DNA of 41,985 nt from Catajapyx aquilonaris (Eukaryota): the NCBI GenBank assembly GCA_000934665.2, contig KZ539110.1, positions 1 to 41,985 on the forward strand, in the 5' to 3' direction. Positions 1,749-38,619 of the stretch are shown here, piece by piece. Position numbers and translations under genes: made by a program. The notes below the pieces were generated by a model, which searched no databases, was not told where the DNA came from, and saw nothing but the letters and a program-made list of their open reading frames with translations. Each line of letters begins with the position of its first letter. The stretch's first letter is position 1.

Positions 1749-3418
1749 TTATTGTTCCACTTCAAGAAGATATTGGCCTTGAAACTGCTCTCTATAAATA
1801 GGTGTCTTTTTGATTTGTTTCAGTTTCAACACAGCACTCTCGTGTAAGGTTTCTTTCAAAACCTGAGGTTTCTGTCGTTGAAGTGTCCAGACTTCAGTGC
1901 CATTTCCATGCCCCTCAAAACTTGGAGAAGCATAGGCAGGAGACACGCTGTAAGTCAAGTTTGCTGATGTAGCAGTTACAAAGCGATGGTCTATGAATGT
2001 AGTATCACTGGAGAAAGTGGAGAACTCCTCTCGAGCAAAATGAAACTTATCCTCTCCGGTCCATCCTAAGCGGTCACCGAACGGCTGACATGTCGCAGTA
2101 TGAGTTCTTAGAGAGTTCGTGACCATAGTTGATACTTCAGAGTCTGATGGATCATCCTGCAGTGTGACCTCTTGCTCAGTGGACTGGGTCATTTGCAACA
2201 CCTGAAATGATATTTGTTTATTGCTATTACTTGTTAATGCAACATACACCATCGGAAGACAACAACAGGCAATTATTTGCAGCAAGATGCAATGTTAACA
2301 CTGCTTCATAGTCGTCGGAAAGGTGGGTGGCACTATTAATGACTAGTGTACCTTATAGCCTGAGCCAACTCCTGTAATGGTGAGGTTCGACACGATGAGG
2401 CCACTTGTTGTTGTAGATATGCCAAGTTCCCCCCTGTTAGCGTAGGTGCCGGAGCCAGAAACTGTGGCTGAAGTGCGGATGGTGGTGCAGCTCCCTTTAG
2501 TCCCTATGACAGTGTCTGTCTGGGTTATCCAATTATCACTCGAATTACTTTGAAAGTTTTTTTGTGAAACTCCGCTGTCTACTTGCACGGAAAACAACCC
2601 TTTCACCCGGTCAATGTCTCGTAAAAGTTTGATGTGGGTTAGATAAACCTGAAAATTAATCCACAGTCAGGAAATGCACCTGCGTAATCCTGGATAACGG
2701 CGTACCTGAATAGAGAATGCAGCATAGCTTTGTTGTCCTCCAGTAGTTTTAATTGTCACACTTTCCTTTAAAGTAAAATTTTGACTGCCAACTGGAAAAA
2801 CTATAATGCCCCTTGATGTGTACGTCCCACGTTGTTCAGCCATTCCAATCGTTATGATTCCTTTCGTACTCCATGCAACTTTGCCTCTGTCAGTGATGTT
2901 TATATTTCCACTGTCACTCAGAGTAATATTGAGTATGGCAGTCGGGTGACCTTTTCCCATCAATAAATTTTGTGCATGCTGAAGGCTGACCTGGCGTCGC
3001 TTCCAGAACTGAGTTAGACAAATGGCAGTTCCATCAAGTCCATCTCCAGGATTCCTCAGGCAAGAATTCAAACTCTCGGCGACATCTGGAAAAAAAAAAA
3101 TGTACCGCCATCAAAATTTGCAGGGACGACAGGAAATCATACAACACTTCACCTGTCTTATCGAAGTGCATGGACGCATGTCGACCACGTACTTTGGTGT
3201 GAAGCAGCAAATTGGAATACTCCTGCACAAAGTCACTTTGCAGCAAGGAATACGATCCTGAAACTAAGTCAAGCACATGCAAGCAGCTTACATTCTATGT
3301 AAAAAAAAAATCATGACGCCAACAAGAAAATTTGCTGATGCGAATCAACAGCTGTGAAGTAAAGTAACTAGTTACCATTAGCCGCCACAACAAGAAACGT
3401 CAAGAGGAAGCCCTTCAT
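1749..3418 (-). CDS. Secreted Ser/Thr-rich protein of unknown family, paralog B (about 425 aa, 5 exons)
   Basis: Exons 3418-3376, 3257-3153, 3085-2706, 2648-2352 and 2201-1749 splice via GT-AG into one 1278-nt ORF. It starts MKGFLLTFLVVAANG and has several N-x-S/T sequons. Confidence 0.85.
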
Positions 3419-4906
3419 GTTTCCAGCGTCTAGACGGTCTCCGTTACAATCCAGCAATATAAACCTTCCTTGGCAGCTGTCAACGAAGTTTATGAGACTC
3501 ATAATGATAAGGCTTATCCTTGGGCTTATCTTAAGGAAATGTTGCACTTTTCCCCGATCACATCCTGTCCGACAGGCAAGGTAAATCCGCATCAATGACC
3601 ATCATACTCTTCTATCATGTATGATACTTGTGTTATCACAACATATCGGTGTCGAAATGAAGTGACCCATCTTCCAATTTCAATATTTGGATTGTGTTGC
3701 GAAAATATTGCCACACCATATGAAACACGGAAAGATAGCACTTTTAATTTCGCAACTCCAATCATCCTAGGTTCAATGACAGTTAAAGTAAATTGCAGCA
3801 AACAGTCGAATTTAAACTAGGCATAACAATATTTTTATTTCATTCACAAAAATAATAGCAAAAAAATCAGCTCTACTTGACATGTACGAGTAACTTACAC
3901 AAATGATATTTAGTTCAATCGATTTTGTCTTCAAAGGCTCCCGAAAGATTTTTTTATGACGCATTGCGTTTAACAGCAATCTCGGACAAATAAGTACAGG
4001 CGGTAATTTACATACTTACCAGTATTCCATTGAAAGTTTTAAGCTACAAAATAAATACTGTTCGACACTTGGAGCTTAAAAAAAGAAAAAAAATATTCCA
4101 AAACCCTACAGAAACCCAATCGCTAAAAATCGGTGAATAAAATAGATTCCACAGATAATTGCAACTGCTCTTAATAATCCACAATTGCAATTATTATACA
4201 ACAATTAAATCTCCTGTTATAACACTCTACAGCATATGGTACAAACAGGAAAAAGAGCACATAAGTGTACTTTTTTGTTCTTTTTAATTTTTTGTTTTTA
4301 CTTTCCCGAAGAAATGGGTTTGAGGGAATACACACTTTTTACTGGTTTAAAAAATATGTCACTCGACATATTCTTTCTTTATGGTTTTACATAATACAGC
4401 TCTGTTGATTACACTGGTCGCCACGAATTAAATTGGGTAGCGGTACCTTCATTTCATTTTTTTTTGTGTCCCCTAATCTGAGAATTACAGTGATTGAAAT
4501 GGCGCTTCGTGAGGAAGGAAGGATGCGGACTGAGGGGGCGTGGGGAAGAGAACCCTACCGTTTTTCTAAGTAGATTTAAAGTGTTGTGTACATTACTTAT
4601 GCAAGGCGACCCTGTGGAAGGCTCATTTAGTTTTTTTTTTTTAAACTGGTTTTTTATATTACACGTTCAACAGTTTCCATGCAACGGCAACTGAAGCCAC
4701 TTATTTTCTTTCTTTCTTTTTCCGTCACCACACATACATTCCCATCAGTTCTACCCAGTGCAAAACAAAATATGGGAGGGTACTTAAATAAAGTTATTTA
4801 TATATATATTTTAAAGGGATGGACACTCTAAACCTGAACAATTTTTTTTTTTTTGTAATTTTCACTGTTTTTTTTTTTTTTCCTTTCTCTTTCGGTGCTC
4901 TCATCA

Positions 4907-7485
4907 TCATTCTGGAAGATAGTGGTCTTCTTTAGCCGCGCTTTCCATCGCTTCCTTCAGCTGCTTCTCGTACATCTTTTTAATGTCGCAGAACCCTTGC
5001 TTTGTCTTTCCAAATGAGTTGGGACCCGCCGATGTTGGAGTGTCCCTAATGGCATGGTGTAGAGATCGCAAAGGTCAGTACGATGGTTAAAGTGGCCATG
5101 TATGGAGCTCCATACAAACTAACAGACTTTCTGATTTGATCATTTTTTCATCTTTGCATTTTTTCTTACATATTTTTCAATAAAATTCCATTATTTTCTG
5201 GTAACAATTGTTTGTCTTACTCGTCAAGTCTAATTTAGCTGCTAGCTGATTGCAAAAACATAGATAGCGGATGAAGTATTTCCTCAGTCTCTTGATGGCA
5301 ACCACAGATTGAATTCAGATCCATTATTATCATTAGACTGACTGTCATATCGAGCTATTTTGTTTGATTACCGAGAAGTTATCCTATCTTAACAATATAA
5401 TAAGTTATATCGATATAACAGCTACTATACGGCTCAAAAAGATAGAGACGATCTTTGAACATATTCGAACTGCGCTCTTGCTGGTTGCTGGCGGTTGCTG
5501 GCGAAACTTATCATAAACAGGGGTTAGGTTAGGCATTCCAATAATTGTTTGCCAAGTGCTAAAGTATTTAAAATAGATTTAAAATACAGTCGACTCCGGA
5601 TATAACAGCCTCGGCTATAACTGACTTTTGGTTATAACAGACTTAAAAGGCTGGTCCCGCCATACTTCCATAAGGTGCTGGGAAAACAAAAGGGGATAGT
5701 GACCCCCTCACCGCACCATCGCCCTAAGACGGCCCGAGCCCGCCGCGTTTGGAGCTGTTGGACGCTGCATGAGGGACACTCGGAGATGGACAACACTGGA
5801 GCTGTTGTGGCCCTGCAGGCACAGTCCGTCACATTGCCCAATAATAATTTTAGTTAGTTGCGAGCATAGCAAGCTGAGCACTTTATCATGTGTTGCATAT
5901 CTGCTGAATAATACTGGCTGTCTTGTGCCACCATAGGCGAACAAATGTTATTGTGGCTTTGCAACCACATTCCAACGTTTGGCCAAGCCACAGTAACGTG
6001 GCACACAGAGACGGGCAATATTGTTGGGCGGATACACAACCCACAGTAAGTGGTCAGCTCGCAACATTCGCACCTAACTAAGATCATTGGGCAATGCGAC
6101 AGACCGTGCCTGGCAGGGTCCTGGCCCAAATGGCTTATAAGGCTTATTGCAATTGCTAATTTTGTATGTGCCCATATACAGTAGACTCTGGATATAACAG
6201 ACTTCACGGAACCGTGGAAATCAGTCTGCTATAGCCGATGTTTGTAATAGCCAAATACATGGGACCTTATAGAAGTATTGTGGGACCAGCCTTTCAAGTC
6301 TGCTATAACCGAGAATTTCTTATAGCCGAGGCTGTTACAGGCAGCAGTACGATGTTCTGAGCGTATGTATGGCCCGCGTGTGGTCCTGGAGAATAAATTC
6401 CATTGCGTCTTCTGCGTTACAAGTTCGAGATAATTTTTTTCCCCAGCATGCCTTATCGTATGTTAGACTTGCACTATCGTCACTCCTTCTGAGCCAGGTC
6501 GAGTTTCTCCAGCAACTACAGGCAACCGCCAGAAAGAGCGGAGTTTGAATAAAGACCGTCTCTATATTTTTTGAGCACGATATTACCTTCCGATGTTGCG
6601 CATCCTCATCCTCGCCTCAGGAGGCATTTCCTCTGGTTCGTCATCCTCGTCTGGGTTGAATATGGCTGCCACTTTTGACGACTTGGGTTTCAGAGCAGTC
6701 GGTGTTGCAGTACTTTTCTGTACATAAAAATCAATGTATTTTAGCTCGTAGCATTACTTTTCATTACAATAATGTAACTGAATATACCTGAGCTCCAAGC
6801 TTGATGGAGATCCCGCTGATCTTCTTCTCAGCCTCGCTGTGCCCATTCCGCGCCAAGGAAGACGGCTTGCTCAACCCGAAGCTGATTTTAGTTTTCTTCG
6901 CCGCCGACTCATCCTGCGTGGAGTCGGCAGACTGAAAGGATCGCTTCTCAGGGCAGGAAGACCATGAGGATTTGCTGCTGCTGCTACTACTACTGCTTGG
7001 AGTCGTGTAGCTCGGTGCACCATAATCGTCGTCCTCAAATGTCGGAGGAGAGTACCGACCGGACAAGGCTGGCGGAGGCGGTGCAGACGGTACGCGGCAT
7101 TCGGCCTGGCTGGTTGTGGATGTCGGAGGTGCCACGTCCCACCTGAAGCGGCGGGAAGTCTGCTCCGGCCGGGAATCAGATGGCGGCCCTGTGGATACAA
7201 CCGATGCCGTTCAACCCATACATATAGTGCCAAACAAATCTGCAATTATGAAGCCTCGCAACAAATATACCCATCCATGTAAAAGTACACTTTAAATATT
7301 TGACAGCACAAAATGGTGCAAACATGACCTGAATATTCCTAAGGTCAATCAGGTGTGACCTTTTGACCTGGGAGCAGGCAGTGCAAGCAGTGGAAATCGC
7401 GAAATGTGATTTCGCAAAATTTTTGGAACTCATTTTAGAACGAACCTTGGACCGATCCGCGGAACGTCTGCTTGTCGGACGCCAT
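4907..7485 (-). CDS. PCNP: PEST proteolytic signal-containing nuclear protein (236 aa, 4 exons)
   Basis: Exons 7485-7446, 7188-6788, 6717-6587 and 5045-4907 splice in frame. They encode the PCNP motifs [15 protein letters not shown] and [49 protein letters not shown]. The ORF ends TGA TGA TGA. Candidate AATAAA at 3839-3834. Confidence 0.93.
5430..6580. mobile_element. Outer MITE-like element with about 80-bp imperfect terminal inverted repeats in PCNP intron 3
   Basis: Left end GCTCAAAAAGATAGAGACGATCTTT...GGTTGCTGGCGAAACT (about 5432-5508) is the imperfect reverse complement of GAGTTTCTCCAGCAAC...CGTCTCTATATTTTTTGAGC (about 6501-6576). Confidence 0.7.
5587..6337. mobile_element. Inner Tc1/mariner-pogo-type MITE nested within the outer element
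   Basis: Starts TA|CAGTCGACTCCGGATATAAC. The arm AACAGCCTCGGCTATAA...AAGGCTGGTCCC...ATAAGGT is inverted at about 6264-6337. A second left end TA|CAGTAGACTCTGGATATAAC occurs at 6179. Confidence 0.7.
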
Positions 7486-7971: not shown

Positions 7972-8187
7972 AAGATCATACTCTACAGGATCAGTTCTGT
8001 AGTATGATTAACGGAACTCTAGAACCAACTAGAGAGTCTGGCAAACCACGATGAGGAGCAATAGCGCCTTCCCTTGAGCGGGAAACCGGTCTTGGCAGTG
8101 GGGTCGAAAGACCTCGCTCCAGACCATTGAGGACCGCGCCCCTAGGTCGAATGGCCCCGGGGCGGGGGAAGACGCTTTCTGAGTGGT
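7972..8187 (+). ncRNA. U3: U3 small nucleolar RNA (216 nt)
   Basis: The 5' end AAGATCATACTCTACAGGATCAGTTCTGTAGT resembles metazoan U3 boxes A'/A. It is followed by ACCACGATGAGGAG (box C'), GAGCGGGA (box B), CATTGAGGA (box C) and TCTGAGTGGT (box D). The ACCAC/GTGGT terminal stem is present and the length is typical of U3. Confidence 0.92.
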
Positions 8188-9271: not shown

Positions 9272-9897
9272 ATGGTGAGCTTATTTCTCGTAAAATATTG
9301 GGCCGTAATTACACTTAAGATTTAACAGGACATGCACATAACAGCCCAGGTGTTGAATACAATGTGCAAGGGAGTCAATTGGAGCCTAGAACTGTACAAA
9401 AATACATGGGGCCTAACATTTTGCAAATTTTAGTAATTAAATGAGGTAATTAGTGTGTATGATTTATTCATGGCAGACCTCTAAGCGACGCAACAACGGA
9501 CGCTCCAAGCATGGCCGTGGGCATGTGAAGCCCGTCCGGTGCACCAACTGCGGACGATGCGTCCCAAAGGACAAGGCCATCAAGAAGTTCGTGATCCGCA
9601 ACATGGTGGAGGCCGCAGCTGTCCGTGACGTGTCGGACGCATCGGTGTACCAGTCGTACCAGCTCCCCAAGCTGTACGCCAAGCTGCATTACTGCGTGTC
9701 ATGCGCTATCCATTCCAAGGTGGTGCGCAACCGATCACGGGAGGAGAGGAAAGTCCGTACCCCGCCACCTAGGTACCCAGGCCGCGTGGTACGTACCAGA
9801 CCGTTTGTCACACACAATTGACTGCATCGATGCAACTAATTCACAATCTCATTTGCAGGACATGCGTGGACGCATCGGCCAGCCTGTGCGCAAATAA
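9272..9897 (+). CDS. RPS26: 40S ribosomal protein S26 (eS26), 117 aa, 3 coding exons
   Basis: An ATG-only exon (9272-9274) is followed by GTGAGC. Exon 9477-9788 encodes [38 protein letters not shown]...[10 protein letters not shown]. Exon 9859-9897 encodes [18 protein letters not shown] at 9924. Confidence 0.97.
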
Positions 9898-15240: not shown

Positions 15241-18200
15241 TTAGTACCTCCTGCGTTTGTTAGGCCCATACTCATCCACCATCGGCCTCTCCCCAGGCCT
15301 GGCCCACTGCCCCCTGGCAGCCCCACCTCCCCGACCCCCACCGGCAACAGCCCCCCTCATGTTCCCCTCACGCATGTCCCTCGGAGGGGGACCCATCCCG
15401 CTCTGGTCGTACCGATCGTGACGCTCATACTCTTCCATAAACACTTTAGCCTCCTGAGATAGGCAGCAGCACACACCCACACACAAAATGTTTTTCATCA
15501 TTTTCCACCAATATCGAGCGAGCATAACACGTGAGAGAATTTGCATCCGGGAGTAGATGAATTCATTGATGAGCAGTAGTTGATGGGGCATTGAGCCATA
15601 CACACATAAAAGAGGAGAGAGAGAGAAATGCATTCCATGAGCATTGAGGAGTTCCATATTAAAAATTGAGGGACAGACAATGAGGGGACACGCTACAACA
15701 GCAAGGATGCTCAGGGGAGGACCGGCTGTACTCGTGGTTGCCTCTGTCGCTCTAAAATGTTGCGCTATGCAGTCCCAAGTTGGATCAAATATAAATTAAT
15801 CGTCTCATCGGAATAGAGGTTTACCCTCTCCCACAATAGGAAACACGGCTGCAAAAAACGTCCAGTAATCGTCAATGTGGTAGCAGCTTATCTCCAGCAA
15901 AAAGAGGATTTCCCTAGGATTGTGAAAAACTCAGTATTTCAATGTCATTCACATGCGCAGTCTGTCACACCTGCAAACACACGTGTCATAGGAGCATTGC
16001 ACTCCTCAACGTATTGACAACCACAGAAAGGAAACATTTTTTCTTCAGGCCTGAGGCCACGCACACGTTATATCCTGCCTAACACGGGTGCTAAATGGCA
16101 GGGGGAATATCGCAGAAATTGTTGGTAGCATTTCGTTTCAGTGTTGAGGTTCACAGCAAGCCGGTTCCCAGAACAACAACTGACAACAATCATAAATTTC
16201 ATTTTACTGTTCACTGATCCTTGCTATTGTAGCATGCAGAATTCTAGTGACAATCACCACAGGCACATAACCACCAGAAAATGACCAAGCTGGAACACCG
16301 CAACTGATATTAATAATAATAATAACAATAATAATAATGGATACCCCATGATAGGCCCCTTGGGCCTCTTAGGGGATCATCTTTTGAATACCCGACTTTA
16401 ATTATTTGCCTGAAATGTGATGGATTTTGATAGTGGGAGGAAACGGGAGAGCCCCGAGAAAACCCACGCGAACACGGAGAGAACCCATCGAAACTCTATC
16501 CACATAAGTATCCTCCGTCCGACCCGGGGATCGAACTCGGAACCTTAGAGGTGGAAGGCTGCGGCGCTAACCACTTGGCCACCGTGTCGCCCTCACCGCA
16601 ACTGATATTTAAACATTACAATATCGCATTACTCTAACTCAATCTACACTTGGAACGTATGCACGCAGCTTTCCGATGAGCGTGAGTAAAAGCTGCCCTC
16701 GAGTCTTGTCAAAATGGCCTCTTATATAGGATATTCAAAAGAGTCAAACGAGGGTCAAGAGTGTCAGGAATCTGCCGAGTTCTCTTTCTTTGTCCAGTGG
16801 AAAATGTCTAAGTCCTAATTGCGGTGCCTTTTCAACCGCTTCCAAAATAAGACTACGCAAAAAAAATTTTTTCATGATCAACTGGTAAATATAATCAAAC
16901 TGAATCAGAGCAGCGTTCCAGTGCAGCAAACTAATGCATTTTCTGGTGGAAATATACCAACAATAACCTGCAGAGAAAGTGCATTATGGGTACAACAGAC
17001 ATACTGCCACTTATCTTCGGATCTCACATGACACATCAACTATTAGGGCTCATTTACGCAATCACTTTCCCAATGCAAGTAGCAGCAGGGAGTGCTCTTA
17101 ACTGGCTGACCATTCCTACTCATGTTATGAGAGTGATTGTGTAAATGGGACTTTAAAGCGAAATGCAATGAGCCTTATTTCGACAGGGAGCATATACTAC
17201 ATAAGAGGCGCAAACATTCGATTTTTGCGTCTCTCTGTTTGGGGCGTTGCCAAGGCTGGCGGCCATCTTGAAGTGTGGGGAACGCCAACGAGGTATAAAT
17301 AGGGTACAGGCAAAAATCGGGTCTGCCATCTTTGATTCGAGCGTGTTCTTGCCATGGCCGCCACAATCATCAAAGATGGCGGACCCTATTTTTGCCTGTA
17401 CCCTATATATCCCTCGTTGGCGTTCCACACACTTCAAAATGGCCGCCAGCCTTGGCAACGCCCCAAACAGAGAGACGCGAACATCAAAGGCGCCGACAGA
17501 AGTTTGCGCCTCTTATGTAGTATATGCTCCCTGCTTTCGATGGGAAAATAACTGAACTGAAATCATAAGTTAAATGTGCCATGTAAAACATTTTGCAAGT
17601 CAATAATTGGCTTTTAAAGCTAAACAGAACATATGTAAAGCAAAAATTCCTTCTTGCAAACTGGTCCAAGTATGCTATCATCAAACATTTGGACCAGGGA
17701 AGTCTCTTACATTCTGGCAGAGAGTGTAGCAATACTTGTTACCAATCGTTATTTTCATGGAATACACTGTACTCCTGATTATCCAGGCTAATGATTGCAC
17801 AGGTGTTGCCGGATAACCAGAAAACACGGCTAATTGGAAAATGGTCCCAGACATCGTATTCAAAGTTTTTTAATGCACTACTATACGAAGTGTATTCTGC
17901 TTGGTGGAATCAAAATACTTAAACTTACCATAGATTTTTACTTTTGTCTTCTAAAAAAAAAAACCTTACTTTTCTTTGTTGGAGAGACATATTGAGAGTG
18001 GGTGGAATTTTCATCCCACTGGTAGTTACTGCTAACTTAGTAGTACCAGTGTTGGCACTGATGCTGCTAAGCAAGCAGTGGGACGAAAATTCGACACATT
18101 TTTTCCGGACTTTAATTTTAAAATTTTATTATTTGGCAATGCACAGACAATCAGGAGTACAGTGTATTTCCTACAATTGTTATATGCACAGTCATAGCTT

Positions 18201-21200
18201 ACAACAGTATGTGCACAACACAGTGATCATGCTCCTAATCTTTTCCACCTCCCCCCCTGTTCGCTCCCATCTTGACTCAACGTCTGAATCACGCATTGGC
18301 ATTACACTGACTGTAATTCCTGAGTGTTTAAGTTTAATGCAGTTTACCAATGGTATTTAACAGTCATTATGATTTACATATGCTTACTGAAACGTGCTAG
18401 TAATTATGTGGGGTCCCAGAAAAATAGACTTTAAAATTCGGTGTCGTAAAAACCCATTATTTACAAGAAGCCAGTTTCCTTTCCTCCGTACCCAGCATGT
18501 GCCAGTTTTACAATAACTACAAGCAATAGGACTCCCACAAGTTTTGATAAATGAAAGTGGTAGAAATGCAGTAACATGGACATGAATTAATTATGTCAGT
18601 CATACGAATAACAACTGAAATGGATTTTGGTAAAACTGCTAAGACTGGCAATGAAATGCAATGCTCCAGTAGCTGCAGATATAGGTGTGAAACTGCATGA
18701 ACACATATTTTGACTTGACATATTGCTAGGTCAATATGATTTTGATAAATTTATATCAGCCTTGTTTTGTAGTTTTGAATTAATTATTTTTTTGAAATTG
18801 CGATGAACCTGAAATCTAAAGACATGAGTGACAGAAACATGGTGAGGAAACACTTGTTAGGAATTGCGCGTACATCCCTCTAATAAAGCTTGTTTTCCGA
18901 AAAAATATCCTCCAAAAAATGAACCTGTGTGTGCAGAAGAGACCTTCCATTCTTGCATGCAGTTCAGCCATTTTTGAAACATGGGGGAAAAAAAAAAAAA
19001 TCTAGTCACAGACGCCACAGGCACTCTCAATGAGTGGTAATAAATTTGCCCGACTTGTTACCACCGTCAATTGCTCCATTACGTCACCAACATAATTCAA
19101 AAGAATTTTCCAGGATTACACAGAAAATACGCTACAAGTTTCCTGCATTTAATAAAACGCATCCAAGAAAACTACGCGGTACATATCGATTCATATACAT
19201 TTGTCCGTACTAGCAGATGCGACTGTTGCAGTCATGCACTCAGCATGTTGCCTGCCATATCATTCCTTCAGAGACAGATTCACATGAATGACGTAATTCT
19301 CCAGGACTACGAAGAGAAATGGCGAGGCTTTCGTGAAACGAAGTTGCAGATAAATCGACTCCATTGCTTTTGCAATAATTCCCGTTTCACAATAAACTTT
19401 CATCCACAGTTTTGTCGCACGACAAAATGCCATTAATAACAGCAAGTTGCCTATGACTTCACAACAACTATCGCAGTATTTGGCCCATCGAGTGAGCGGG
19501 TACATGATGACCTTGCAATATCAGTGCCCCAAGAAACTTGTTCCCAGACCCCAGCATTGTTGGTGAGTCGTATTCCCTCACAGTTAAGTCCCGTATCAAT
19601 ACTATCCAATCACTTCATACATAGTCGCATCGCTCACGAAGCCTGAGATACGACCAACCTTATTCTTCAGAAGTTTTAACACTAAAGACATCAGCTAATT
19701 GCCTTAAAATTACTTTTGTCATAATACCCAAATAATATCCAAAAGCACCTCAACTGCATGAGGGCCACTAGGACATGAATATTTCACCCCCAAATCCATC
19801 ATGATTGGTGCATAAATCCAGCACAATCTCCCACGTGATACTGCTTCGAAAAAACCCACATATTGTACACCACCACAAGCCTATATATTGTATAAGATTT
19901 GGTGCACGAAAGTCGTCGGAAAATACTACATAATCGCAATAATAAGTTCGTAGCTTTCAAATCAATAAAATGGCAATATACAAAAATATCGCAGGGTACA
20001 ACCAGCCTGTCTCATTTTAAAGACGACGTCCTTTCTATAGAGAGTGTGGCGAAAATATTTTCACATTCCTGGTACATTTTCATGCAGCGGTGACTGCAAC
20101 ATCATCATCGGACCGATGCAATATCAACGAAGATCCAGTCCCTCAAACGTGTAAAACGGCACGGATTCTAAGAGCCTAGCTGCAATGATATACAAGTACA
20201 ACGATGCGTTGCATGCCGTAACGTACGAGGCGCAGAGATATTTCGATGACCCCCAAAGATGATCCACATTCCCTAAGACGATCCGCAAGTTTGTACTACA
20301 AAGAGCACTGTTGTTCCGAGTTTTTGGCTGACTGCCTACAAGATAGGCTTGAAAAGGAACTTTTAAGAATCACATGAGCTTCTGCTGCACACACAGTTGC
20401 AAATATTGTTATCCCTCCCAACCACTAGTTCCCGATCGCAATGTTGTTTCCTCAGATACAAGTTTTGCATGCAAGCTATATAACAGGCCAAGGTTGGCTA
20501 TAACGTTCAACAGTGAAAAGGCCGAGAGAAATACATTACCGGGGTCATGCTGCTTCCACTGGCTCCCATTCCTCCGGCTACATCACCAGCGGTTGGGGGA
20601 AAGAAATCGGGATGGGGAAAAAACGTATTATGATCTTGTGTAAGTGTGACCATGAAAGAGAATAAATCAAAAATCAAAAATCTGATACTGTGGAAAACAA
20701 ACGCTTAACATAAGAGAGACATTAACAAATTACGTTAAAAATCATACGGCTGCATATGCACTGACACTCGCACATTTTCCGCTGCATCATGCACACTATT
20801 CCATACCAGATACTCGAGTCAATCAGTTCAGACACTCACCTCCCATGGGCTCATATCCAGTGTCATAATTTCCTTGTCCAGATCTAAGTGCCTGTTCCTG
20901 CTGATCTAGAAGACTATTCAGCTGATGTGCCTATTTATAAAAAACAAGTGTGTTAGCAATGTAATTCCTTTGGCTCTATGCAACAACCTGACGTACCTGC
21001 ATGAACAGGTTGTTCTCTTGCTGTCGGCGGTGCAGCTCTTCCTCCTGCTGCCTCATCCGCAGCTGCATGTCCTCCTGTTGGCGATGCATCATCTCCTCAT
21101 CCTGGCGACGCTGCTCCTCCCTATTGCGCTCCTTCATCTCCCAATCACGCTTCTGGCGTTCACGGTCCATCTCACGCTGTCGCAGCTCTAGAAATTTAAA

Positions 21201-24125
21201 GAAGCACATGGCTACAGCAGTCTGCTCGATACGAATCGACACCTAACTTGTCATGTCGAAAATGTCAATAAAATTTCAACCGTAAGGGTAATTGGGCTAT
21301 TGTGCACGAAGGCAAGATTGGTCCCTATGCACCGAGTTGAACAGTAAGTACCACCGCGAATGCTATTCGTCGCGCCCACCTAAACTGGATAATTACCACC
21401 GTAAGTTGTTAATTAAATCTACTTGAATGCCTCGTTTCATTGGCTACAGACTTCATTCGTAGTGTCAGTTAAGCAATAACTGGCTGGTATGAGCAAACAA
21501 TAGCTTTTACACACATTCCTTCACGCGACGCAATGAGTGAAAACACATTGTCAGGGAACATTCCTCAGCTTGCAATAACTAGTTTCATTCCTTTCAATCG
21601 GGAACTCCTGAATCATCATTGGAATGTTTTATGAGAATGCGAGATAAGCACAGTACCTATAAACTCTTTCTGGCATCCAAGCCACATGCAAGGAATAACT
21701 TACGTTCACGAAGCATCTCGGTTTCATGCTCGTATCTGGCGTACTCCATTCTCGCCTCCAGCTTCTCCTCGTCCAACTTAATCTCCCTGGAGAGTGATTC
21801 CTCCTTCTGCTTGCGCATCTCGTACAGCTGCTTCCACTGCTGGCCATACTCGTACTCAAATGATCCAGGCATGGCAAACCTGGGCCCAACCTCACGTGCC
21901 TTGACGTACTCTGGGTTCTTCTTGGGCATGTTCTTCTCCTGGTAACCATCCTCGTCACCAGTTGTGTCAACGGGATCCACAATCACCGGCTTCAGAGCCC
22001 TGTACGGGGTAATAATGGGGGTCGGGCAAGATGGGCAAGAAGGGGGGGATAGGTATAAACAGATCACGAAACTTAAGGGCTGCCTTGGGCTGGATAAACC
22101 ACAAAATCCTAATTAAAAAGTTAGCGTGAAGCAACATCCTTCAGTTTGCAATTAACTAGTTTCATTAAAATCAATCGGGAACTCCTGAATCATCATCAAG
22201 ATTGTGCTTCAACAAGTCTAGTACAATATGTTCCAAACCAAGGGTACTTACGAGGTAAGGAAGAAGCAGCCTTCTTGGCAGTACTTCATGGCCATCATCG
22301 CACCAGGGCGGCGGGCGTACTCGACGATCCCTTCCCCCGTGGTCTTGCCCCTCTCGTCAACCAGCACAATGGCCCTTTCGATCTCTCCGAACACGGAGAA
22401 AGCCTTCTCCAGAAGCTCATTTGACACCCAACTTGTCAGGTTCTTCACTTTGATCGCAGCACTGTGCGGAGCAAATCGGACCTTCAAGGTGCGACCCTTA
22501 CGCACCGTGCCATCCAGCTCACGCTTGGCCTGCTCTGCATTGGCACGGTAGTCCTGGTACGGTACAAGGTGTACATTAATCTTCCATAGCACCAGAATTT
22601 ACTTCCAACATTTCTCTAAAAGGCCCATTTTGCTATTAATGAACGTTGTGGTCAAGGCACATTCCTCAGCTTGCAATAATTAGTTTCATTACATTCAATC
22701 GGGAACTCCTGAATCATCATCGGAATGAATTATGGGCAGTTACGCCATTTATACCTTTAGGGTCGGTTTCACCATGATAAAAACGGGGTTCTTTCGGAAA
22801 ATCCCTACATATTCGTACAGATTTTCCGAAAGAACTGTGCTCTAATCATTTGGTACAAACCGGCTCTTAGCAAACAGTTGAAAGGTCGCAACGGCTACGC
22901 TGAAAACAAAGAAAATCACATAAAATCGTCCTTACCAGCCGAATGAACGCAAACATCTTCTCCTTGTTGATAAAAAGCTCCGCCGTCTCCCCGAAAATCT
23001 TAAACATATCTCTAAGCTCATCCTCGGTCGTATCCGGCGTCAAATTACCAACATACAATCGGCAACGACCCGAGAACTTCTTCTCAGATATATCTTGTGG
23101 CGGCAAATCAACAGTCGACCCCGCAATCTGGGCCAAACGCTCATTCAGCCGCACCTGAAAAAACATTAAAAAAATATGTTGCATACTGGATGTACATACT
23201 GTTCATGTAATGTTCCGATCGTACTGTAACGTTCCGATCGTACTGTAATGTTCCGATCGTACTGTAATGTTCTGTTCTTACTGTTCCGATCGTACTGTAA
23301 CGTTCTGTTCTTACTGTTCTGTTCCGATCGTACTGTAACGTTCCGATCGTACTGTAATGTTCCGATTGTACTGTAACGTTCTGTTCTTACTGTACTGTTC
23401 CGATCGTACTGTAACGTTCTGTTCTTACTGCAATGTTCCGATCGTACTGTAATGTTCTGTTCTTACTGCAATGCTCCGATCGTACTGTAATGTTCCGATC
23501 GTGCTGTAATGTTCTGTTCTTACTGCAATGCTCCGATCGTACTGTAATGTTCCGATCGTGCTGTAATGTTGTTCTTACTGTAATGTTCCAATCGTACTGT
23601 GATGTTCTGTTCTTACTGTAATGTTCCGATCGTACTGTAACGTTCTGTTCTTACTGTACTGTTCCGATTGTACTGTAACGTTCTGTTCTTACTGCAACGT
23701 TCCGATCGTGCTGCAATGTTCCATTCTTATTGTGGTGTACGTTCTGTTCGTACTGTACGTACCTCCTGGCTGCGCATTCCTCCTCCTCCGCCCCCTCCAG
23801 GTCCAGACTTGTTGTCTCCGTCCTGCTGCGGGCCGCCCCTCATTCCTCCGCCCCCGCCTCCGCCCCTGAACCTCCCTCCTCCTCCTCTCATCCCGCCTCC
23901 TCCGCCGCCGCCTCCCCTCCCGCCTCTCCCGCCCCTGAACCCTCCCCGGTCACCGAACCCTCCCCTGTCGCCTCTACCGAACCCTCCGCCTCCCATCTTA
24001 TCCACCTGGTTCGCCCCGGGTCCGCCGCCCCCTTGCCCAGGTGCTGGCCCCCCCTGTTCCGACTTGACCGAGTTGCCTATCCCATTCTCAGCGTCCGCCT
24101 TCATCACCACAGCTCCAGTAGCCAT
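15241..24125 (-). CDS. nonA: DBHS-family RNA-binding protein (NONO/SFPQ/PSPC1, Drosophila nonA/hrp65-like), about 570 aa, 8 coding exons
   Basis: Exons 24125-23763 (RGG/Gly-rich), 23154-22936 (RRM1, RLYVGNL), 22553-22252 (RRM2, GEGIVEY), 21999-21704 (NOPS, GPRFAMPGSFEYEYGQQWK), 21187-20997 (coiled coil), 20930-20840, 20577-20540 and 15453-15241 (ends PNKRRRY*, NLS). All borders are GT-AG with consistent phases. Confidence 0.95.
16312..16593 (-). mobile_element. tRNA-derived SINE with V-domain-like core and (ATT)n tail
   Basis: Head GGGCGACACGGTGGCCAAGTGGTTAGCG...GGTTCCGAGTTCGATCCCC carries A and B boxes. The core is TTCTCTCCGTGTTCGCGTGGGTTTTCTCGGGGCTCTCCCGTTTCCTCCCAC and the tail is ATT repeats. 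A perfect 16-bp target-site duplication CACCGCAACTGATATT lies at 16296-16311 and 16594-16609. Confidence 0.92.
17184..17533. mobile_element. Almost fully palindromic 350-bp MITE (possibly P-element-like)
   Basis: TIR CAGGGAGCATATACTACATAAGAGGCGCAAAC. Arms of about 155 bp are nearly complementary around a short spacer. Flanks ATTTCGA / CTTTCGA resemble a 7-bp TSD with one mismatch. Confidence 0.85.
21557..21628 (-). ncRNA. Box C/D snoRNA, copy 1 (DBHS intron 4)
   Basis: AACATTCC-A-ATGATGA(C)-TTCAGGAGTTCCCGA-TTGA(D')-AAGGA-ATGAAA(C'-like)-CTAGTTATTGCAAG-CTGA(D)-GGAATGTT, with an 8-bp terminal stem. Confidence 0.85.
22128..22210 (-). ncRNA. Box C/D snoRNA, copy 2 (DBHS intron 3)
   Basis: Same boxes and an identical TTCAGGAGTTCCCGA element. 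The terminal stem GAAGCA.../...TGCTTC is imperfect and differs in sequence from copies 1 and 3. Confidence 0.8.
22660..22727 (-). ncRNA. Box C/D snoRNA, copy 3 (DBHS intron 2)
   Basis: CATTCC-G-ATGATGA-TTCAGGAGTTCCCGA-TTGA-ATGTA-ATGAAA-CTAATTATTGCAAG-CTGA-GGAATG. Confidence 0.85.
22760..22866. mobile_element. Tourist/PIF-Harbinger-like mini-MITE (107 bp)
   Basis: TTA|GGGTCGGTTTCACCA ... TGGTACAAACCGGCTC|TTA gives imperfect TIRs with a TTA TSD. There is an internal perfect 16-bp inverted repeat at 22788-22803 / 22820-22835. Confidence 0.65.
23205..23760. repeat. Minisatellite of two related ~19-bp units filling DBHS intron 1
   Basis: Interspersed units GTTCCGATCGTACTGTAAT and GTTCTGTTCTTACTGTAAT, roughly 25-30 copies. 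Confidence 0.95.
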
Positions 24126-32029: not shown

Positions 32030-33016
32030 CTGCAAAAAAGTACAAGGTGAATCAAAACTAGGAGTCAAGTTGGCTCAAAATAAATTAAAAATGTGGAGGT
32101 AAGAAAAATGTCGAGAAATCAACCGGCGAAGTTATGACTCACTCTGTACTATTAGTTGGATCCGGAGGATTGGACACCTCCAGCCAAATTTAATCAGCAC
32201 TTTAATCAGGTGCTAGTGGTGCACCTATGCTGCAAACCAGACTTGGCAGCTAGTGTAGACCGCGTGAAAACCAACTCAAAGTAGCCTCGGCTCATGTTGG
32301 GAACAAGTTGCTACTTAATGGGGGGGACTGGCTCCACTTTATGTCGCCACCACTTATGTAACAAAACATGTTCATATTGGCAGAAGCCGAAGCAAAAATA
32401 ATATCTATTTTTCCCATAGGTTGCCAAACAATTTCCAGACAAGTGGGTGTGAAATGGGTACGAAATTGGATAACAGTGCAATAAATAAAACAATAATGGA
32501 TTAATTGGCGGACTGCCCATTGCGACCATTCCGGGTTTGTCCCCCCACTGCCTTTCAACACTTTGGTCATAAAACCTCGGGGATAGACCAGCAGACAAAC
32601 AAGCAGAACCCCTTCGTAAAACTGGCTGTAAAATATTTTTTTTGGGGGGTCCAACCACCGCTTGGAACCGGATGGTTTACGACCATTACATGCCCAGTAA
32701 CCCTTTGAGTAATTTGACTAATTATCCTTGGTAGAATTTTACATGTACGGCGAGTCCCCCGAAATTAATATTTGAGTATAGGGGGATGTATGTGTGGGAT
32801 AGGGGAGTTTTGATTCCATAATGATTATCGCCTCCGCGGGATGGGCTCAGAGGGAGAGTATTTTCATTCACAAAGCAATCCCCATCCCCACCAAAAATTG
32901 ATCTCCACATTATTCATCCCATTTTTATCTCTCACAAAAAATATGTCCTATAAATAAATATCTGATAGCAGCCTACAAAAACTATCATCTAGTTAATTTG
33001 ATGGGATGACGGACAT

Positions 33017-33191
33017 NNNNNNNNNNNNNNNNNNNNNNNNNNNNNNNNNNNNNNNNNNNNNNNNNNNNNNNNNNNNNNNNNNNNNNNNNNNNNNNNNNNN
33101 NNNNNNNNNNNNNNNNNNNNNNNNNNNNNNNNNNNNNNNNNNNNNNNNNNNNNNNNNNNNNNNNNNNNNNNNNNNNNNNNNNNNNNNNNNN
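33017..33191. other. Assembly gap (N run) next to a poly-C tract
   Basis: 175 N characters. Single Ns also occur in C-runs at 31799 and about 41493. Confidence 1.
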
Positions 33192-34908: not shown

Positions 34909-35346
34909 TCACAAAAAGTATATTAATATGGAGAACACTAGGGCGTGGGCAATTTCCGCAAATATAAAGTTGTACGAAATGCCACCTATGAATGTAAAGG
35001 TGTAATAGGCCGATGTCCACCTTTCCGTCGCCATATTCTCGCAGTTCAGTCCACACGTGGTAGCACTCTCCGCAATTCGTCGTCCTCTAAAGACCTTCTC
35101 CAACAAAGTACAGAGTACCTGAACCACTGACATGAATAAGGCGGTCATGAGGTGGAAGGCCATCAGTAAGGTAGACAGACAGAAGAGCAGGGACAGGACG
35201 ACGAGGTACACCCACAGAAATCCGAACATTATACCAAGGACAATTTTTATCAGGAACAGGATTGGGTTGCTGCCCACCAAGTCTGTCTCCTCTCCCAAAA
35301 CGTGATTTCGAGCATGGCCCGCCCAGTCTTCCAGCTGATGTCCCAT
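34909..35346 (-). CDS. Unknown small multi-pass membrane protein, paralog 1 (145 aa)
   Basis: Intact single-exon ORF MGHQLED...VLGEETDLVGSNP...FSILIYFL*. A 5'UTR intron (donor 35421, acceptor 35357) is conserved in all three copies. Confidence 0.8.
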   Translation of the reverse strand: MGHQLEDWAGHARNHVLGEETDLVGSNPILFLIKIVLGIMFGFLWVYLVVLSLLFCLSTLLMAFHLMTALFMSVVQVLCTLLEKVFRGRRIAESATTCGLNCENMATERWTSAYYTFTFIGGISYNFIFAEIAHALVFSILIYFL

Positions 35347-35814
35347 ATTTTGCTACCTTGAAGCAAGGAATAAGTGTGACATAATAATGAGTAGTTCTAT
35401 AATTACAAACAAGTAACTCACCACGATGGAGTTAATAAACCTGCTGCGGATTTAGCCATACTGCTCTGTGACAAATCACATGAAGTCACAGCCAGATAAA
35501 TACAAACGTTACTATGGTAAGAACTAGATGTGTAACAATATTGGAATGAATAAGCAAATTTTTTTGACTAAAATCGGTGTCCTTACACAGACCCTGTAAG
35601 TCATTTTTTCAGTCAATCATACAACATGCCATAATGTCCACTTTGAAAGTAATTGTTCTGAAAGCACTAATTCATAAAATAAGGCTTTAGTGCTAGAAAA
35701 TTGGAAGGCAACTTTCAACCATTTCATTTTCAGATTACACATAATATTGTCTCCAAAATTATTGTGCACAAACATCAAGAATGAGTGCAATTGAATCTGC
35801 GCCGTCGTTATGAT

Positions 35815-36252
35815 TCACAAAAAATATATTAATATGGAAAAGGCTAGAGCGTGGACTAGTGCCGATAATACAAAGTAGTACAAAATGAAACACATGAATG
35901 CGAAGGTGTGACAGGCTGCTAGCCAGCAGAACATCACAGAACTCTCGCAGGAGTGTCCAAATGTGGTAGCATGGAGCGCAATGGGTTGTCCTCCAAAGGC
36001 CCTCTCCAGCAAGGTAGCTGATATCTGAAGCACTGAGGCGAATACAGCGGTGGTGATGTGGAAGGCCAATAGTATGCCACAGAGACAGAAGAGGATGGAC
36101 AGGATGAATAGCAACAACCACAGAGCTGAGAACATTATCCCGAGGACAATCTTGACCAGGAACAGCATTGGGTTGTAGCCCACCAAGTCTGTCTCATCGC
36201 CCAAAACGTTCTTTCGGGCTTGGGCCACCCTGTCATCCAGCGGATTACCCAT
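35815..36252 (-). CDS. Unknown small multi-pass membrane protein, paralog 2 (145 aa)
   Basis: MGNPLDD...VLGDETDLVGYNP...FSILIYFL*. The start is placed at 36252 by alignment with the paralogs and the 5'UTR intron (36338-36264). Confidence 0.8.
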   Translation of the reverse strand: MGNPLDDRVAQARKNVLGDETDLVGYNPMLFLVKIVLGIMFSALWLLLFILSILFCLCGILLAFHITTAVFASVLQISATLLERAFGGQPIALHATTFGHSCESSVMFCWLAACHTFAFMCFILYYFVLSALVHALAFSILIYFL

Positions 36253-36761
36253 CTTTTTTCTACCTTGAAACATGTAAGAAGTGTGACAGAATAATGAGTT
36301 GTTCTAATTACGTCTTGTAATAAGTAGGCGTAACTCACAATGATGGCGTCAATAAAAGTGTTGAGGATTTGGCTGGTGGGGACTGCTCCGCGACAAATTA
36401 CGTACACTTATGTCAGATCCAGGTAAATACAAACGTTACTATGGTAAGAACTACCCAGATGCGTAACAATATTATTGGAATGAACAAGCCAAAAAAAAGT
36501 GAATGAATTTGGTCAGTCCTTACACAGCCACTGTAAGTCATAATTTAATTACTTATTTCGGATTTGCAGTCGATCATGCAACCGGCCATAAGTCAGCACA
36601 TACGTATGTACGTTTTGACAGCTTAATTTTTCTGAATATGTACTCATTAATAAAATGAGTGCCAGTAGTTTCAGCCATTTCCTTCTCAGATTGCGCCGAT
36701 TGTCTGAGTGCAACATGTATATTATTTATGTTCTATTGAAACTGCGCTGTCCTTATATGAT

Positions 36762-37187
36762 TCACCAAAAGTATATTAATATGGAGAAGACTAGGGCGTC
36801 GACAACGGCCACTAATACAAAGTAGAACAAAAGGTTACACATGTAGCTGAAGGTTCCACAGGTTCCTGTCCAGCAGTCAATCGCCACTCTCTCGCATCTG
36901 GTAGCACGTTCCGCAATGAATTGTCCTCCAAAGGCCATCTCCAACAAGATAAAGAATATCTGAAGCACTGAGGCGAATAAGGCGCAGGCGATGTCGAAGG
37001 CCAGCAGTACGGCCAAGAGACAGAAGAGGGTGAACAGGATGATGAGGAACAACCACAGAAATCCGAACATTATCACAAGGGCAGCTTTGATCGGAAGAAG
37101 CATTGGGTTGTAGCCCACCAAGTCTGTCTCATCGCCCAAAACGTGCTTTCGGGCTTGGACCACCCAGACATCCAGCTGATTTCCCAT
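36762..37187 (-). CDS. Unknown small multi-pass membrane protein, paralog 3 (141 aa)
   Basis: MGNQLDV...VLGDETDLVGYNP...FSILIYFW*, with an in-frame 4-codon deletion in the loop. 5'UTR intron at 37260-37198. Confidence 0.8.
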   Translation of the reverse strand: MGNQLDVWVVQARKHVLGDETDLVGYNPMLLPIKAALVIMFGFLWLFLIILFTLFCLLAVLLAFDIACALFASVLQIFFILLEMAFGGQFIAERATRCERVAIDCWTGTCGTFSYMCNLLFYFVLVAVVDALVFSILIYFW

Positions 37188-38619
37188 ATTCTGCTACCTT
37201 CAATCATGCAAAAAGTATGACAGAATACTAAGTCGTTCTGCTTACAAATAAGTAACTCACCACAATGGAGTTAAAAACTGCTGAGGGTTTGGCCATATAG
37301 AGACTGCTCTGTGACAAGTCACAGCCAGGTAAATACAAACGTTACTATAGCAAGATGTGTAACAATATAGGAATGAAAAAAAGCATGCAGCCCCTGTAAG
37401 TCTTGCTGCGCGTTAAACATAAAAGGCATTTGGGTTGCTCTGAACAGTCAGGCTAAACTCGTATTGTTCTGCACCCATGTTGACAATACAAAAAAAAAGT
37501 CAATTTGTGGCATTGTCACAATCCCCACTTTGCCTCGGCATTGTTGGTAGTGCTCGTGGTCGGTCAAAAACCGCCCTCCAAGCATTATGTACGAGTAAAC
37601 AGGGCATAAGATCGGATTTTTATGGCGTGGTGGACCTGCGTGTTGGATGCCTGGGGCTAATCTGGGGGAAGCTGATTTGCGCCGAGGAATGCTGCGAGAG
37701 CCGGAGCGATAAACTGAGTATTGTGCCTCCAGGGGCGATTACCTCCCACCCCCCACGGTTTTGGGGGATGCTTGACAGAAGCTGGATTGGATAAGATGCG
37801 ATGGAATCCTATGTCGGATGGGATCCAGGGACACACACACACAAAAAAGTGGAGACGCCAAATGGCCAAGCGATGGTGATGAATGGCGCTGTCGCCTTCC
37901 GGACGCGCACCTTCCACACCCAGCCCTTATCTGCGATATTTCCGCTTCCCAAAAATTCCACTCTTCTTTTCTGGTGGGAGAAAACCCAACATGGCGTCCA
38001 TTCCAAGTCGAAGTCATTAATGGAAAAAAAACGAGTTGTAGAGGAAATGCTGTCGATTTGGAGACAAGACAAGGTTCATTTCCCGGATCGAGAAAGCGAC
38101 ACAAGTAAAATGAGGGCGTAGCATCCATCCGACCCTGCAATTTTCTAAGGATGGTTATTTTCTCCGGGCCTTCCCCGAATTAAGGAAAAAAAAAACAACA
38201 ACCGGGGACCCCATGGTGCAATTGCCGCCTTGGTTCCGCTTTTCTGGACATGGCTTTTTCGCAGGCCTGATACATTCGGCGCCAAATTGGACCCCGGCTG
38301 GATGTCCTTTGCCGTGGTCGTTCTTGTTCCGGTCCATCCGGGGGGCTGTGATTCCTGCCCATCTCTCATCCAGCCCCAGCAGCAAACAAGCTCAGGATCC
38401 TCCAAACCATGACGAAGTTTCCAGCGTAGCTACTCCCTCAGGCGCCCCTCCCACCAAACAATCCATTCCGGGGAACGAAGCCTCTCTTCCAGGCCTGTTT
38501 CTGGAGTCGGCTGGGCTGCTGCTCACTATATCCTCCGGCCATTACGCCCTTTATTTATCGCGCTCCCATACGCCACACCGCCGGCCTCAATCAATTCCGG
38601 GCCCTCTACTAACCGTCTC

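Follow-up and report, generated by a model that had tools for sequence, protein, structure and literature searches.

The DNA analyzed here, a 41,985-nt stretch of contig KZ539110.1 of Catajapyx aquilonaris (positions 1 to 41,985; the window), carries on its minus strand a DBHS gene, three introns of which each hold one box C/D small nucleolar RNA (snoRNA) unit of about 70 nt in the sense orientation of the host. The three units are paralogous and, judged from their sequence, probably represent canonical intron-encoded box C/D snoRNAs of ordinary architecture, with a guide upstream of box D' whose target lies outside the ribosomal RNA (rRNA) examined and a guide upstream of box D that is most likely directed at 28S rRNA. 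The family has no Rfam model; its architecture, its host arrangement and its layout of several isoforms are ordinary for arthropod-type snoRNAs. A preliminary description of the window had already placed one such unit in each of introns 2, 3 and 4, and both the coordinates and the motifs on the minus strand agree with it.

Anatomy, constraint and host gene of the snoRNA units

From 5' to 3', each unit is composed of a stem strand, box C (ATGATGA), a 15-nt D' guide (TTCAGGAGTTCCCGA), box D' (TTGA), a 5-nt spacer, box C' (ATGAAA), a D guide of 14-15 nt, box D (CTGA) and the second stem strand. All three copies show the features of the box C/D class: an RUGAUGA-type box C near the 5' end and a CUGA box D near the 3' end, a terminal stem of 5-8 bp that joins the two, and internal D'/C' boxes with antisense elements of at least 10 nt ending at the box. 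With about 70 nt, they are also inside the range of 62-87 nt covered by the C/D entries in Table S6 of the Drosophila study by Sklias et al. (2024), of which parts of the article and its supplement are used here.

Copy A (21557-21627, minus strand as all units) lies in intron 4 (21188-21703), with box C at 21613-21619, the D' guide at 21598-21612, D' at 21594-21597, the spacer at 21589-21593, C' at 21583-21588, the D guide at 21569-21582, D at 21565-21568 and a stem formed by 21621-21627 and 21558-21564. Copy B (22133-22204) is found in intron 3 (22000-22251) and comprises box C (22190-22196), D' guide (22175-22189), D' (22171-22174), C' (22160-22165), D guide (22145-22159) and D (22141-22144); its D guide has one extra A and A as its last base, and its stem holds the compensatory changes described below. 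Copy C (22658-22728) belongs to intron 2 (22554-22946), has its box C at 22714-22720, D' guide at 22699-22713, D' at 22695-22698, C' at 22684-22689, D guide at 22670-22683 and D at 22666-22669, and shows one G-to-A change in the D guide. Box C, the D' guide and box D' together form a 26-mer (ATGATGATTCAGGAGTTCCCGATTGA) that occurs exactly three times in the window without any mismatch (21594-21619, 22171-22196 and 22695-22720, minus strand) and in 0 of 100 dinucleotide shuffles. When the complete window was screened on either strand for RTGATGA followed 45-130 nt downstream by CTGA, together with a terminal stem of 5 bp or more, no units other than these three came up.

The pattern of variation between the copies is highly uneven. 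In a tight alignment there is no variable column in the four boxes and none among the 15 of the D' guide, in comparison to 6 of 9 in the 5' stem, 4 of 5 in the spacer, 3 of 15 in the D guide and 2 of 7 in the 3' stem; the difference between the D' guide (0/15) and stems, spacer and D guide taken together (15/36) has a hypergeometric P of 0.0017. The stem nevertheless keeps its pairing in 20 of 21 cells, and two of its seven pairs changed on both sides: in copy B, C-G became U-A and U-A became C-G, and one further pair turned into G-U. Shifting the partner strand by 1-3 columns lowers pairing to 33-52 %, and the column-shuffle control, which is weak with three sequences, reached the observed value in 61 of 500 cases. 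As the preliminary description had stated, the surrounding intron sequence is unrelated, with no alignment between the copies in the flanks, and an invariant 15-nt element stands beside spacers and stems that diverge and still pair. Since the flanks cannot be aligned, the duplications are not recent, and fixed boxes and a fixed D' guide after old duplications argue for selection on these elements and not for homogenization of the whole unit. The pattern therefore points to a D' guide under selection and to a stem whose pairing would have been kept through compensatory changes. If the annotation holds, it provides a clean three-paralogue example of snoRNA constraint in which the boxes and one guide are fixed and the stem co-varies.

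The identity of the host, proposed earlier as a DBHS gene, is borne out by Pfam matches on consecutive minus-strand exons to RRM_1 (2.7e-09), RRM_1 (1.2e-13) and NOPS (2.8e-23), i.e. two RRMs followed by NOPS and then by a charged coiled-coil-like exon. Exons were derived from minus-strand stop-to-stop frames, with splice sites read off the sequence. Exon 2 (22947-23155, donor GT after base 22947) encodes the first half of RRM1, exon 3 (22252-22553) the end of RRM1 together with RRM2, and exon 4 (21704-21999) the NOPS domain; exon 5 (21003-21187, acceptor AG at 21188-21189) is without a Pfam match and encodes the charged coiled-coil region, and the last exon, near 15241, ends in KRRRY. Homologues of the NOPS exon numbered 16; PF08075 is present in 14, and one homologue bears the name proline- and glutamine-rich splicing factor. 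The numbering of the introns as 2, 3 and 4 follows this exon model and would shift with an undetected exon in the 5' untranslated region. The word nonA does not appear in the supplement of Sklias et al. (2024), one column of which names host genes, so that, to this extent, none of the annotated fly C/D snoRNAs has nonA as its host. The parts of this supplement used here give host-gene names and no snoRNA sequences, and the host-gene negative is therefore informative, whereas the negative result for 9-mers of the guide is not. Literature searches for snoRNAs in nonA introns or for nonA as a snoRNA host gene in Drosophila yielded nothing relevant by title or abstract among the papers listed, and a search linking hrp65 to snoRNA yielded only an unrelated review.

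Two further structures are present in the introns of the host. Upstream of copy C in intron 2, positions 22768-22855 (minus strand) form an 88-nt near-perfect hairpin with 35-nt inverted arms (-40.5 kcal/mol, z -8.2; none of 200 shuffles reaches this stability), which gives weak rox1-like Rfam matches on both strands and could be a microRNA-like precursor or a small palindromic element. Intron 1 contains a minisatellite (23206-23733) with units of 19/38 nt, about 14-28 copies and 77-85 % matches.

Putative targets of the two guides

From the anatomy of the units we infer that they are expressed, assembled into a ribonucleoprotein (RNP) and used to methylate target RNAs. Each snoRNA would be freed from the intron of the DBHS pre-mRNA after splicing and debranching, and exonucleases would shorten it as far as the terminal stem and the C/D kink-turn, to which the core proteins 15.5K/Snu13, Nop56, Nop58 and fibrillarin would bind. 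Guided by the antisense elements upstream of D' and D, the RNP would then 2'-O-methylate the nucleotide that pairs with the fifth base before the respective box (+5 position). For the D guide, this nucleotide would most likely lie in 28S rRNA just 3' of expansion segment 27 (ES27), at the homologue of Arabidopsis 25S Um2114.

Complementarity was assessed in ribosomal DNA (rDNA) collected with a published primer for internal transcribed spacer 1, which gave 109 eukaryotic metagenome loci, and with a published insect 5.8S primer, which gave 8 loci from prokaryote assemblies and no match in a viral contig set. All of this rDNA comes from organisms other than Catajapyx. Judged by Rfam, near-complete units are present in the loci L115 (18S 356-2315, 5.8S, 28S 2723-6687) and L110 (18S, 5.8S and 28S up to model position 2291).

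In the 28S rRNA of L115, positions 5164-5175 (CTTGCAATGACT) are complementary to the D guide of copy A over 12 bp including one G-U, a match equaled by 9 of 300 shuffled guides in run length and by 7 of 150 in duplex energy. The site belongs to a semi-conserved region lying between ES27 and the invariant GAATCCGACTGT...TAATTAAAAC, and the nucleotide at +5 is the fifth base of a CTTGC/CTGGN motif. In loci with a T at this fifth base (L013, L020 and L065), a G follows 11 nt and an A 13 nt downstream. The Arabidopsis modifications Um2114, Gm2125 and Am2127 correspond to Drosophila positions 2491, 2502 and 2504, and Um2114 also to yeast 2112 (Sklias et al., 2024; Table S4 rows 132-134). The agreement in spacing and base identity, which was counted and not aligned to Arabidopsis rRNA, is suggestive of a correspondence between the +5 nucleotide of the D guide and Arabidopsis Um2114, Drosophila 2491 and yeast 2112. 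In Arabidopsis, At1gCDbox52.1 is assigned to 25S Um2114 and At4gCDbox112.1 to 25S Gm2125, i.e. to the positions addressed in L115 by the +5 base of the D guide and, one base off, by that of the D' guide; these are two separate plant snoRNAs, and the likeness is a functional analogy based on positional counting only. As a side observation, a comparison of L115 with L110 and 15 other loci revealed that most loci read CTGG[C/A/T][A/G]CGG[A/T]C between ES27 and GAATCCGACTGT, and that the same stretch of L115 (5145-5200) reads CTTGCAATGAC, a lineage variant in which a helix strand that is otherwise well preserved has shifted towards A and T.

Several points weigh against the proposed canonical snoRNAs with a 28S-directed D guide. 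The match between copy A and L115 is one of eight guide-by-unit tests and is therefore only suggestive by itself. It occurs in one of the two near-complete units, with 200 of 300 shuffles doing as well in L110, and copies C and B pair worse at the L115 site (run scores of 9.5 and lower). It would hold only if the 28S rRNA of Catajapyx shares the lineage-specific sequence of L115. On the side of the RNA itself, the D' (TTGA) and C' (ATGAAA) boxes are invariant but degenerate, and the minimum-energy folds of the units are no stabler than shuffles (z -0.24 to -0.39), which is normal for C/D snoRNAs. Besides, the distance to the 3' splice site amounts to about 104 nt for copy C, 133 nt for copy B and 369 nt for copy A, which places copies A and B far from it relative to the vertebrate optimum of about 70 nt.

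For the invariant D' guide, no above-chance complement was found in the foreign rDNA. The best contiguous run score in L115 and L110 is 7.5, which 262 and 257 of 300 shuffled guides reach as well, and the best gapped duplex (-16.3 kcal/mol) equals the shuffle mean, with 67 of 150 shuffles reaching it. Across both strands of all 117 loci (702,088 bases), allowing at most one mismatch in positions 2-13 and at most two G-U pairs, no sense-strand rRNA site appeared in more than one locus, the multi-locus matches being antisense to 18S; likewise, none of these loci contains a complement of at least 10 bp with a paired +5 base. Judged by complementarity, the target of the D' guide thus lies in no rRNA examined, a negative that covers the rDNA of other organisms and not the rRNA, spacers or small nuclear RNAs (snRNAs) of Catajapyx itself. 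The preliminary description had called the snoRNA an orphan. This may hold for the D' guide, whereas the D guide of copy A, by pairing over 12 bp with L115 28S, has exactly the rRNA complement of at least 10 nt that was named beforehand as removing the claim.

Individual candidate sites for the D' guide were considered and rejected. The commonest one in which the +5 base is paired and the run reaches at least 9 is 18S GGAATTCCT, with 9 bp including one G-U in 44 of 109 loci; in L110 and L115 it is reduced to 8 bp, and Table S4 of Sklias et al. (2024), in the part covered, identifies no 2'-O-methylated position there. Gapped pairing at a GAAA-type hairpin of 28S (L115 3746, L110 4241; -16.3) and in the conserved sequence that precedes ES27 (-14.6) is no better than with shuffled guides. 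The host pre-mRNA reaches a best score of 9.5, as do 65 of 200 shuffles, and the neighboring U3 a chance-level 7.5. Nothing was seen that would tie the snoRNA functionally to the nuclear-body role of its host protein, and complementarity to the host pre-mRNA is at chance. Within the host transcription unit, positions 20421-20435 (minus strand) form nine contiguous Watson-Crick pairs with the box-proximal end of the D' guide (TCGGGAACT), which is within chance.

The snoRNA itself was not encountered elsewhere: a 25-mer of it is absent, at up to three mismatches, from the five genomes behind L110, L111, L114, L115 and L117 and, as an exact match, from the viral contig set. Searched as text in the literature, the guide and its complement matched only a moth microRNA table, a human microRNA list and otherwise seemingly unrelated papers.

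It is conceivable, if somewhat doubtful, that the units form an undescribed arthropod-type family with a non-canonical D' target, which would be either a non-rRNA transcript or, by a box-proximal pairing of 7-8 bp that snoScan-type searches overlook, the 28S Gm by ES27 (Gm2502/Gm3606). In a true orphan family, the view taken in the preliminary description, the D' guide would act on a non-rRNA target such as an mRNA, snRNA, tRNA or pre-rRNA spacer, or without methylation, and the three copies would raise the dose. We regard this as unlikely. It fits the run scores and duplex energies in L115 and L110, the lack of a recurrent sense-strand rRNA site in the 117 loci and the lack of an Rfam family at threshold, and it would have company in the ten expressed Drosophila C/D snoRNAs that are likewise listed as unmatched ("orphan") by Sklias et al. 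(2024) in the parts used. However, as the search covers foreign rDNA, targets in lineage-variable rRNA would escape it; the D guide does match rRNA, host pre-mRNA and U3 show complementarity at chance level only, and no alternative target has positive evidence.

In this context, the rRNA next to the D-guide site has to be considered. Without any gap after this site, L115 5176-5183 (TCGGGAAT) pairs with the eight bases of the D' guide nearest the box through seven Watson-Crick pairs and one G-U. Sites this strong are rare in L115 rRNA (7 in 6,332 nt), and only 10 of 2,000 shuffled guides give an equally strong one starting 8-18 nt after the start of the D site. By positional counting, the G at the D' +5 position (L115 5180) is displaced by one base in the 3' direction from the homologue of Drosophila 28S-Gm2502, with a spacing of 12 nt as opposed to 11 nt in Table S4. 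According to the parts of Sklias et al. (2024) at hand, 28S-Gm2502 is a high-confidence Drosophila site, conserved in human (Gm3606) and Arabidopsis (Gm2125), for which the entry reads "snoRNA not found".

Both guides might accordingly serve one region of 28S, with the D guide acting on the C at the 3' base of ES27 and the box-proximal 7-8 nt of the D' guide (TTCCCGA) on the G in the adjacent GGGAATCC, which would supply the type of guide listed as not found for Gm2502/Gm3606/Gm2125. The gapless succession of the two sites, its scarcity among shuffled guides and the vacant high-confidence methylation site are in favor of this idea, which we still judge to be quite improbable: a guide pairing of 8 bp is short, the idea does not account for the 5'-most seven bases of the invariant D' guide, and the D' +5 base misses the Gm homologue by one nucleotide. 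In L110 the stretch reads CTAGGGAATCC and offers no site with a run score of at least 7, the adjacency was spotted post hoc, and a single RNP could presumably not bind 20 contiguous nucleotides with both of its guides at once. The adjacency on L115 28S is hence kept as a lead only. If it holds in the rRNA of the species itself, it would show guides tracking lineage-specific rRNA sequence and could direct the search for the missing fly guide of a conserved 28S Gm; apart from this lead, the present results amount to routine genome annotation.

Comparison with known snoRNA families

The reading of the units as ordinary intronic C/D snoRNAs has close parallels in Drosophila. The three orphan isoforms snoRNA:Or-CD11a, b and c (now snoRNA:CD64a-c) in RpL28 are 62-65 nt long and about 210 nt apart (Sklias et al., 2024, Table S6, listing Huang et al., 2005), and their orphan status reflects the lack of a confident rRNA site that would match them. 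They share with our units the arrangement of three isoforms of a short box C/D snoRNA in one protein-coding host gene and are therefore a direct precedent for it, although their host is a ribosomal protein gene and not a DBHS gene; the comparison is one of table entries, which give coordinates and no intron assignments, and not of sequences. Multi-isoform clusters are, moreover, routine in Drosophila, as in snoRNA:CD2a-d (Me28S-G3081a-d / U31) and CD3a-d in Uhg1 (Sklias et al., 2024, Table S6). These resemble the present case in having one copy per host stretch, several near-identical isoforms, canonical C/D boxes and a length of 66-87 nt, and differ from it in their non-coding Uhg hosts and their known, conserved rRNA targets. 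A 2026 preprint on S2 cells reports, in the part considered, no novel fly snoRNAs. Given such clusters and the three orphan isoforms in RpL28, the terms "dosage-amplified" and "non-canonical target" of the preliminary description are not needed, and a non-canonical function of the snoRNA has no positive support.

With the covariance models of Rfam 15 at gathering thresholds, the window yields a single match, which corresponds to a complete U3 snoRNA gene at 7972-8187 on the plus strand (RF00012, 121.6 bits, E 9.4e-27), about 13 kb from the snoRNA triplet. A permissive search of 21450-22850 gave 18 matches, all below gathering scores, in agreement with the earlier suggestion of a possibly undescribed family. 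If the annotation holds, the window would thus contain a box C/D family that Rfam-based pipelines would miss in this genome.

Among the sub-threshold matches, snoR77Y (RF01178, clan CL00057) gives the best family-wide alignment for all copies, with bit scores of 27.9, 24.7 and 24.3 (gathering score, 52) and E-values of 0.011-0.091 for the 1.4-kb search, the three matches not being independent. In both cases an antisense element lies directly upstream of D', where GGAGTTCCCG in our units stands opposite GGAAUUACCG of the model with 8 of 10 guide bases identical; in contrast, 9 fewer nucleotides separate box C from the guide in these copies. The site of snoR77Y-type guides is the Um of the 18S 530 loop, i.e. 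Drosophila Um586, human U627 and yeast U578 (Sklias et al., 2024, Table S4 row 27). In the snoR77Y register, our units carry C at +5 in place of the A of the model, and a G-U replaces one pair. With a C at +5, the guide could not serve the U of the 530 loop, and the units therefore fall outside the snoR77Y/SNORD65/snR77 family; among the matches listed, the D' guide has no site at this loop with a Watson-Crick +5 pair and a run of at least 9. A distant common origin with the snoR77Y family is possible on the basis of the alignment. It is very unlikely, by our estimate, that the units are diverged paralogues of the 18S-Um627 guide family (SNORD65 / snR77 / snoR77Y) that have lost their specificity and are decaying or retargeted. 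The best family-wide alignment of all three copies would suit such a descent, but the scores are about half the gathering score and not independent, a C facing the U due for methylation together with the G-U pair is at odds with the defining function of the family, and a guide that is fully invariant in three old paralogues speaks against decay.

A second weak resemblance, to TtnuCD9 of Tetrahymena (RF02286), is uneven between the copies: copy B scores 29.8 bits against a gathering score of 70, copy C 20.9 bits, and copy A has no match. The likeness is that of the D guide of copy B to the D guide of the model, and it is due to the extra A of copy B that only this copy fits well. Its D guide pairs over 10 bp, with 1-2 G-U, with 18S GTTGC(A/G)GTTAA; in the two insect-type units, L110 and L115, the pairing contains two G-U and is at chance level (154 of 300 shuffles).

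A non-functional origin, from a short interspersed repeat or a chance combination of motifs that happens to recur in three introns, is barely credible, as there are only three copies in 42 kb, all intronic and in sense orientation, with boxes and one guide invariant while the stem co-varies and with unrelated flanks that leave no larger repeat unit.

Other features of the window

Outside the DBHS gene, the window holds an open frame at 9450-9821 (plus strand) that resembles ribosomal protein S26, judged by eye from its translation. Three paralogous open frames at 34909-37193 (minus strand) encode about 143-162 amino acids each, start with QNMG.QL and contain hydrophobic stretches, which suggests a tandem family of small membrane proteins. 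Two similar open frames at 258-1019 and 2667-3110 (minus strand) with common motifs, e.g. SLNSCLR.PGDGLDGTA.CL.QFWK.RQVSLQHAQNLL, are probably exons of duplicated genes. At about 33013-33190, a run of N marks an assembly gap and appears as X in the translation.

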